In this document: positions 20,497-21,534 of the stretch, piece after piece | Numbering within the stretch: position 1 is the first letter of the stretch | Layout: each line of letters opens with the position of its first letter | NCBI RefSeq assembly: GCF_044647545.1 | Contig: NZ_CP172818.1 | From: Escherichia coli | Lineage (GTDB): Bacteria > Pseudomonadota > Gammaproteobacteria > Enterobacterales > Enterobacteriaceae | DNA: 64,000 bases | Direction: 5' to 3' (one strand) | The notes under the pieces: generated by a model | What the model was told of the DNA's origin: nothing | Seen by the model: the letters and a program-made list of their open reading frames with translations, nothing else | The model's database searches: none | Translations under genes and position numbers: made by a program

Positions 20497-20723
20497 TTGG
20501 AAATAAAATTGTTTCCAATAGACATTTTTAACATGTTGTTTTTCTAAGTGTTATAAGGTAGGTATAAAATGGGATGGAGCCTCTGCTTCTGGCATGTGTC
20601 GGTCAGAATGACTCATGATGTGGTCTGCTATTATTGACATCCTCACTGCCCTAAAGGATAGGCATTTCGGTAATGCTGCCAACTTACTGATTTAGTGTAT
20701 GATGGTGATTTTAAGGTGCTTCC

Positions 20724-20999
20724 GTGGCTTCCATTTCCATCAGATGTCCTTCCTGCTCCGCTACTGAAGGCGTGGTGCGTAACGGCAAAAGCACTGCCGG
20801 ACATCAGCGCTATCTCTGCTCTCACTGCCGTAAAACATGGCAACTACAGTTCACTTACACCGCCTCTCAACCCGGTACGCACCAGAAAATCATTGATATG
20901 GCCATGAATGGCGTCGGATGTCGCGCCAGTGCACGCATTATGGGCGTTGGCCTCAACACGGTTTTACGTCACTTAAAAAACTCAGGCCGCAGTCGGTAA
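20724..20999 (+). CDS. insA: IS1 InsA (transposition repressor)
   Basis: 91-aa product [43 protein letters not shown]... with the InsA zinc-finger CxxC motifs. Confidence 0.9.
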
Positions 21000-21421
21000 C
21001 CTCGCGCATACAACCGGGCAGTGATGTGATTGTCTGCGCTGAAATGGACGAACAGTGGGGCTACGTCGGTGCTAAATCACGTCAGCGCTGGCTGTTTTAC
21101 GCGTATGACAGGATACGGAGGACGGTTGTGGCGCACGTCTTCGGTGAACGCACTCTGGCCACACTGGAGCGTCTTCTGAGCCTGCTGTCGGCCTTTGAGG
21201 TCGTGGTATAGATGACGGATGGCTGGCCGCTGTATGAATCACGCCTGAAGGGAAAGCTGCACGTTATCAGCAAGCGTTACACTCAGCGCATTGAGCGACA
21301 TAACCTGAATCTGAGACAACATCTGGCAAGGCTGGGACGGAAGTCACTGTCGTTCTCAAAATCGGTGGAGCTGCATGACAAAGTCATCGGGCATTATCTG
21401 AACATAAAACACTATCAGTAA
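20918..21421 (+). pseudogene. insB: IS1 InsB with an in-frame TAG stop (insAB' transposase likely inactive)
   Basis: Frame reads ...[41 protein letters not shown]...; I recall intact InsB having W at that position (VIWMTDGW). Confidence 0.7.
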
Positions 21422-21534
21422 GTTGGAGTCATTACCGACCATGTTTATTTCATACATTGTGGGTATTGTTCTTATTATCGCCGCTAATCAATAAAATCCT
21501 GCCCCATATCTACATGGGGCAGTTGTTCATTCTT

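Follow-up and report, generated by a model that had tools for sequence, protein, structure and literature searches.

How an insertion sequence with well-preserved ends but a stop codon in its transposase gene comes to lie between flanks that share no target-site duplication is the question raised by an IS1 copy in the 64,000-nucleotide stretch of Escherichia coli DNA analysed here (the window). As an object the element is not new: it is the already catalogued IS1F, the type IV IS1 of E. coli K-12, whose insB7 is a pseudogene. The account favored here, with a probability of roughly 85%, is that this is an IS1F inactivated by an amber codon, that an adjacent 27,279-bp deletion is responsible for the missing duplication, and that silent changes reached the element by gene conversion.

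The window opens at ahr and the tRNA-Leu(CAA) gene leuX (1512-1596) and then runs through a leuX genomic island of the K-12 type, in which IS1F marks the fecI-proximal edge of the fec (ferric-citrate) module (Table 1). The K-12 copy (insA7, b4294, and insB7, b4576; NC_000913.3 4518472-4519239) is at the same fecI/yjhU locus and has the same length and the same TAG. It is identical to the window copy at 759 of 768 positions (98.8%), with nine substitutions inside the IS; its right junction is identical to that in the window and its left junction is identical apart from two bases. In the K-12 annotation insA7 is a gene and insB7 is a pseudogene, which PGAP describes as 'IS1-like element IS1F family transposase; programmed frameshift; internal stop'. 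At the other end of the island, the integrase gene that follows leuX is reduced to its N-terminal 162 codons, which encode the arm-binding domain and some of the central one, and this segment (1512-2271) diverges from K-12, which has IS2 nearby. On the fec side, the E. coli module has only a degenerate hairpin (20630-20668), and the IS1F junction is in its right arm. A perfect hairpin with a 17-bp stem is present upstream of fecI in the Klebsiella pneumoniae plasmid pIncF (L016, 4905-4990), whose fec genes are without this IS; the same plasmid has IS1B in the place expected for fecR, between fecA and fecI.

Table 1. Features at and around the IS1F copy, in window coordinates
Feature	Position	Strand	Remark
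fecI, first gene of the fec module to the left	19911..20432	-	
ykiE, small ORF between fecI and the IS	20569..20637	+	annotated in K-12
Left 9-bp flank AGGCATTTC, fec module	20660..20668	.	bases 20660-20663 vary between strains
IS1F-type insertion sequence, 768 bp	20669..21436	+	identity with K-12 IS1F and consensus comparison
IRL, left terminal inverted repeat	20669..20691	+	20/23 match to reverse complement of IRR
Promoter-like site within IRL	20676..20703	+	consensus scan, 9/12 hexamer matches
insA, intact ORF, GTG start, 91 aa, zinc ribbon and HTH	20724..20999	+	ORF and Pfam
insB frame, first part, ending at the amber TAG (21209-21211)	20918..21211	+	
AAAAAAC (A6C) -1 frameshift motif, fusing insA to insB'	20975..20981	+	
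Stranded remainder of insB, 69 codons	21212..21421	+	ATG right after TAG; carries Asp166 and Glu191
IRR, right terminal inverted repeat	21414..21436	+	27,279-bp deletion begins at its outer base
Right flank, last 58 nt (18 codons and stop) of a GRP-family sugar-transporter gene	21437..21494	+	
yjhU, first intact backbone gene to the right	21535..22521	-	

The copy has the length of about 768 bp, the inverted repeats of about 23 bp, the insA gene, the A6C site and the DDE_Tnp_IS1 domain of the IS1 family. The family feature that is absent is the 8-9-bp direct target duplication, which marks simple insertion and is not required for IS1 membership. The earlier note had described a 768-bp IS1 with good terminal repeats, an intact insA and an amber codon that truncates the transposase, and it was right on each of these points. 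The 23-bp ends, GGTAATGCTGCCAACTTACTGAT and the reverse complement of ATCAGTAAGTTGGAGTCATTACC, are identical at 20 positions, and the promoter-like site within the left one is at what we take to be the position of the IS1 promoter PIRL. InsA is a repressor and DNA-binding protein. Its reading frame here has matches to Zn_ribbon_InsA (PF03811; 5.9e-20, 71 bits) and HTH_Tnp_IS1 (PF12759; 4.9e-30, 103 bits), both with scores above the family cut-offs, and the encoded protein is that of the IS1F consensus, as the window-private changes within insA are silent. An Rfam scan of 19000-23000 found no RNA families.

The TAG is at the position of Trp163 of the 232-aa InsAB' (Trp98 of InsB), in the context FEVVV*MTDGW that had been reported. 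The -1 frameshift product reconstructed from the window copy can be aligned with the 232-aa InsAB' of intact copies but ends after residue 162, while the identical reconstruction on an intact sister copy yields 232 residues with Trp163; an uninterrupted 232-codon InsAB' frame is thus absent from the window copy. The catalytic domain of insB' is homologous to DDE_Tnp_IS1 (PF03400) but is interrupted: the match is split into segments covering profile positions 1-61 and 63-131, which score 106 and 127 bits (E value of 1e-36 for the downstream piece), and the gap between them is the TAG. The catalytic triad, which we take to be D109/D166/E191, was placed by the motifs EMDEQW, MTDGW and RIERHN, with 24 residues between D166 and E191, and the assignment follows the one reportedly made by Ohta et al. 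2002. Codon 163 is three codons ahead of D166, and the truncated InsAB' retains the zinc-finger and HTH DNA-binding part together with D109 and is without D166 and E191. RefSeq agrees in that its entry for the K-12 copy is a pseudogene containing an internal stop. We infer that the window copy lacks catalytic activity and cannot transpose autonomously.

Relatives of the element have tryptophan at this codon. Intact IS1 of the IS1F type (WP_094106546.1), found on plasmids of E. coli, Shigella and Enterobacter and on some chromosomes, has 768 bp and the same ends, and is 4 to 8 positions off the window copy; it has TGG at codon 163 and encodes the full 232-aa InsAB'. Two of three such plasmid copies are flanked by 8-9-bp target duplications, which points to an active autonomous element. 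IS1A and IS1E, the 'consensus' IS1 of K-12, have the same architecture of inverted repeats, insA, A6C and insB', with an InsAB' identical at 218 of 232 residues and the TGG intact, though they have 64 nucleotide differences from the window copy. IS1X2 is a mosaic, also with TGG intact, in which the insB part is IS1F-like and the left 270 bp are IS1A-like. Among the IS1F-type plasmid copies, that in E. coli 8-3-DC15 differs from the TAG consensus at the codon-163 base alone, encodes 232 aa and is flanked by a 9-bp duplication, GCATGGTCA; another, from Shigella flexneri, has an 8-bp target duplication. Since sister copies one base apart encode the full 232 aa, the TAG is not a natural reading-frame boundary, and a single G-to-A change has made Trp163 an amber codon in an otherwise active IS1 lineage.

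Alignment with IS1 variants reveals the TAG to be typical of the IS1F allele and widespread. As an exact 81-mer centered on codon 163, the TAG form is present in 2,737 E. coli records and the TGG form, which comprises IS1X2 and fully IS1F-like intact copies, in 2,308. The junction of fec with IS1 is present in 42 metagenome contigs, 20 of which span codon 163, with TAG in 11 and TGG in seven; the other two have indels and were left unscored at this codon. Copies identical to the TAG consensus at all 768 positions are present at no fewer than eight unrelated chromosomal loci (fec, mdtM/brnT, an RHS element, psu, an amino-acid antiporter gene, hprS, ykgR and murR/wzzB), and a TAG-bearing copy at the RHS locus has an 8-bp duplication, AGATTGCT. 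The TAG-consensus copies examined include L017 (E. coli AR_0006, RHS), L006, L018-L020 and L073-L075. Presumably a transposase-dead IS1F has spread, using borrowed transposase.

The flanks tell of a different event. The left and right 9 bp, AGGCATTTC and GACCATGTT, match at four of nine positions and there is no target-site duplication. The earlier note had seen this difference and had suggested an old insertion with an adjacent rearrangement, or acquisition by recombination, rather than simple transposition. The adjacent rearrangement is borne out by a strain in which the DNA on the right is still present. In Res13-Lact-EB12-05 the island has the order leuX ... IS30 - fecEDCBARI - ykiE - IS1F, the IS1F having the TAG and the K-12 haplotype. 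Its right end is followed by TCCTCCCGA, the start of 27,279 bp that end in CTGCTGCT; then come GACCATGTT and yjhU, and the GRP gene is intact. The 27,279 bp contain ymgB-like and phytase-like genes, IS66, Ag43, yeeS/yeeU/cbtA, ISEc12, mtnK, mtnA, and aldolase and transporter genes. Alignment of the window to Res13 runs to the last base of IRR and resumes 27,279 bp further on at GACCATGTT, so that K-12 and the window are without exactly these 27,279 bp, the endpoint being 58 nt before the stop of the GRP gene. Res13 has the entire transporter gene, of which the window has only a remnant, and the change was therefore a deletion; the gene is also intact beside yjhU in strains with other arrangements. 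The earlier note had further proposed a comparison with empty-site sequences. That comparison yielded no empty site: with 400 bp of left flank joined to 400 bp of right flank as the query, the flanks are contiguous in none of 5,426 genomes, and all 356 full matches have the IS between them. What was found instead is the undeleted arrangement of Res13. The undeleted state, recognizable by its TCCTCCCGA right flank, is the other common type (10 of 20 full-length metagenome copies), and the K-12-type joint is common to 356-360 genomes, many of them K-12 derivatives.

Intramolecular IS1 transposition results in deletion from the end of the IS, with the IS kept and no duplication left. IS1-promoted adjacent deletions in the gal region, the classical case, were reportedly described by Reif and Saedler in 1975. 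These likewise start exactly at the IS end, keep the IS and its other flank and are without duplication; unlike them, the fec-yjhU deletion is natural, fixed, 27,279 bp long and deduced from genome comparison. Intramolecular transposition of IS1F would have joined its right end to a new target, retaining the IS and the left flank, with loss of the intervening 27,279 bp. This is how the deletion appears to have arisen, and a target duplication is missing because adjacent deletion joined IRR to new DNA. The TAG is already present in the undeleted strain, so that another IS1 copy probably supplied the transposase. The undeleted state is itself without a duplication (GGGGATTTC on the left, TCCTCCCGA on the right), which implies at least one earlier rearrangement.

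The same joint of fec, IS1F and truncated GRP gene could have been generated without transposase, by RecA-dependent homologous recombination with a second IS1 lodged in the same orientation in the 3' end of the GRP gene. The product would be indistinguishable from that of an adjacent deletion, independence from transposase suits a TAG-bearing element, and IS1 copies do recombine, as conversion tracts and a whole-IS replacement at this very junction testify. Such recombination would, however, have had a GRP::IS1 parent. A synthetic query for the parental junction of the GRP 5' part with IS1 was covered to at least 80% in none of the 5,426 complete genomes, and neither the intermediate nor its left junction is present in any of them. 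The deletion endpoint is, moreover, a single site in all 356-360 carriers. Homologous recombination is on this evidence an unlikely origin of the joint, though one to be taken seriously.

A dispersal of TAG copies by transposase from elsewhere fits what is known of the K-12 element. In a strain without IS1A and IS1E, which are the autonomously mobile copies in K-12, no IS1F transposition events were found (PMC12428005). On over-expression of InsAB', IS1F was the most often mobilised copy, with 44% of 48 sequenced insertions (PMC12903888). Both experiments were with the K-12 copy, and relative to the window copy this has three additional amino-acid changes. The two papers, both from 2025, call the reason for IS1F immobility unknown, and the stop codon is mentioned in neither (PMC12428005, PMC12903888). 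Truncation of InsAB' by the amber at Trp163 offers a simple reason why IS1F cannot move alone, and the identical TAG copies at many loci are consistent with its mobilisation in trans.

The alternative that the TAG is not inactivating, either through supE-type read-through or because a UAG stop is followed by restart at AUG to give an active split transposase, would make the element autonomous, and the spread of TAG copies would then be self-driven rather than passive mobilisation by other IS1. The TAG does directly abut an ATG (TAGATG, 21209-21214), the window copy is without amino-acid change from the consensus, and the numerous loci of identical TAG copies, one with its 8-bp duplication, could be read in this way. 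Their spread is nevertheless accounted for by mobilisation in trans (PMC12903888), and the immobility of K-12 IS1F without external transposase (PMC12428005) is the opposite of what autonomy would bring. In addition, fec-linked copies gather stops, frameshifts and amino-acid changes as a dead gene would. Their further damage includes Q25*, E45*, a 1-bp deletion, a 3-bp insertion and loss of the A6C motif, and in K-12 InsA the H34P change is between two conserved Cys residues. When only changes not equal to the IS1A base are counted, the new mutations in fec-linked copies are nine non-synonymous or nonsense, six silent and two indels, a pattern indicative of a gene no longer under selection. 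An active split or read-through transposase is, with this record, very improbable. Of the additional nonsense mutations, Q25* of the insB frame is present in four metagenome contigs (L040, L050, L054 and L064) and E45* in the copy of O157:H7 PV15-279 (L012), which has TGG at codon 163; these imply that the lineage was inactivated independently more than once.

That IS1F forms one end of an IS1-fec-IS1 composite transposon, with the duplication at the outer ends of the composite, is hardly credible. The left junction of fec with IS1F does move with fec into several contexts, plasmids included, but the 64-kb window has one full IS1, the other trace being an 87%-identical fragment 22 kb away, the fecE-distal side has IS3 and IS30 remnants and no IS1, and the right junction is fully explained by the 27-kb deletion. 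An ordinary insertion long ago, with later decay of the 9-bp duplication through point mutation, could appeal to the 4/9 flank matches, against roughly two by chance, but is refuted by the lack of an empty site among the 5,426 genomes and by the undeleted arrangement in Res13, where the first 947 nt of the transporter gene and another 26 kb are present, and the two flanks are from different contexts, fec upstream sequence and the 3' end of a transporter gene.

Over 12,000-36,000 the window has only 11 substitutions relative to K-12, all of them at 20660-21382. At four of these it is K-12 that departs from the IS1F consensus, by H34P, T52K, S143L and a silent change. Another five, four silent and one non-coding, are private to the window, each with the base that IS1A has; the window copy has these five differences from the TAG-bearing IS1F consensus, as against the 64 from IS1A. 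The full set of 11 differences is in none of the public sequences searched (5,426 E. coli genomes, PLSDB, GTDB representatives and metagenome contigs), which could arouse suspicion of a sequencing or assembly error. For the TAG itself an error is refuted, as position 21210 has the same base in K-12, Ec1303, EJN001, ESY002, Res13 and FAM21845 and in eleven metagenome contigs. The silent differences within the element probably derive from other IS1 copies by gene conversion; among fec-linked metagenome copies L064, L034 and L035 have IS1A-like conversion tracts, with one whole-IS replacement at the junction. The private base at 20722 is flanked by two IS1F-specific bases, and no IS1A or IS1X2 tract can have been its source. 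A plasmid search for the donor of the window haplotype gave as the closest an Enterobacter hormaechei copy with two of the five private bases.

The remaining two differences, at 20660 and 20663, are outside the IS, and hence are unexplained by conversion between IS copies. The tract 20660-20663, 6 to 9 bp outside IRL, is AGGC in the window, GGGG in K-12 and the 42 metagenome contigs, and TCAG in FAM21845, and the DNA to its left is constant among strains. Nearly all of about 3,000 E. coli matches to the left flank are two bases off the window here, consistent with GGGG. The exact window junction is in none of the metagenome contigs, for which the K-12 junction, found in those 42, served as positive control, and a degenerate form of the window-junction pattern has no match in GTDB species representatives. 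Quasi-palindrome correction was considered for 20660 and 20663 but is not supported, since the bases in the window pair no better with the left hairpin arm.

Elsewhere in the window, the 8.85-kb K-12 fim region, with most of the fim cluster, is absent and about 660 bp (42880-43537) are present instead. Within these is a degenerate IS1 fragment on the minus strand (43025-43266; 87% identity over 79 bp and a 25-bp piece), which suggests that fim loss was a second, older IS1-associated deletion. Shigella sonnei leuX islands also have fec and are without fim, but their size is different from that of the window island (PMC4374849). The island interior is identical to K-12, unlike the backbone to its right: the region 38000-62000 (uxu, gntP and yji genes) has at most 98.7% identity to any of the 5,426 complete E. 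coli genomes. The contrast indicates either mosaic origin or an unsampled, possibly Shigella-like, host. Over 43837-51295 the draft assembly GCA_029121005.1 has no mismatch to the window and GCA_054550295.1 has two.

Though correct, the finding is an ordinary one, with little value beyond that of careful annotation. Its import for K-12 is that the fec-yjhU junction of the K-12 type can be reconstructed as a 27,279-bp deletion from the right end of IS1F. For the family, a dead IS1 with good ends at many loci illustrates how non-autonomous insertion sequences may persist, presumably by borrowing the transposase of active copies.
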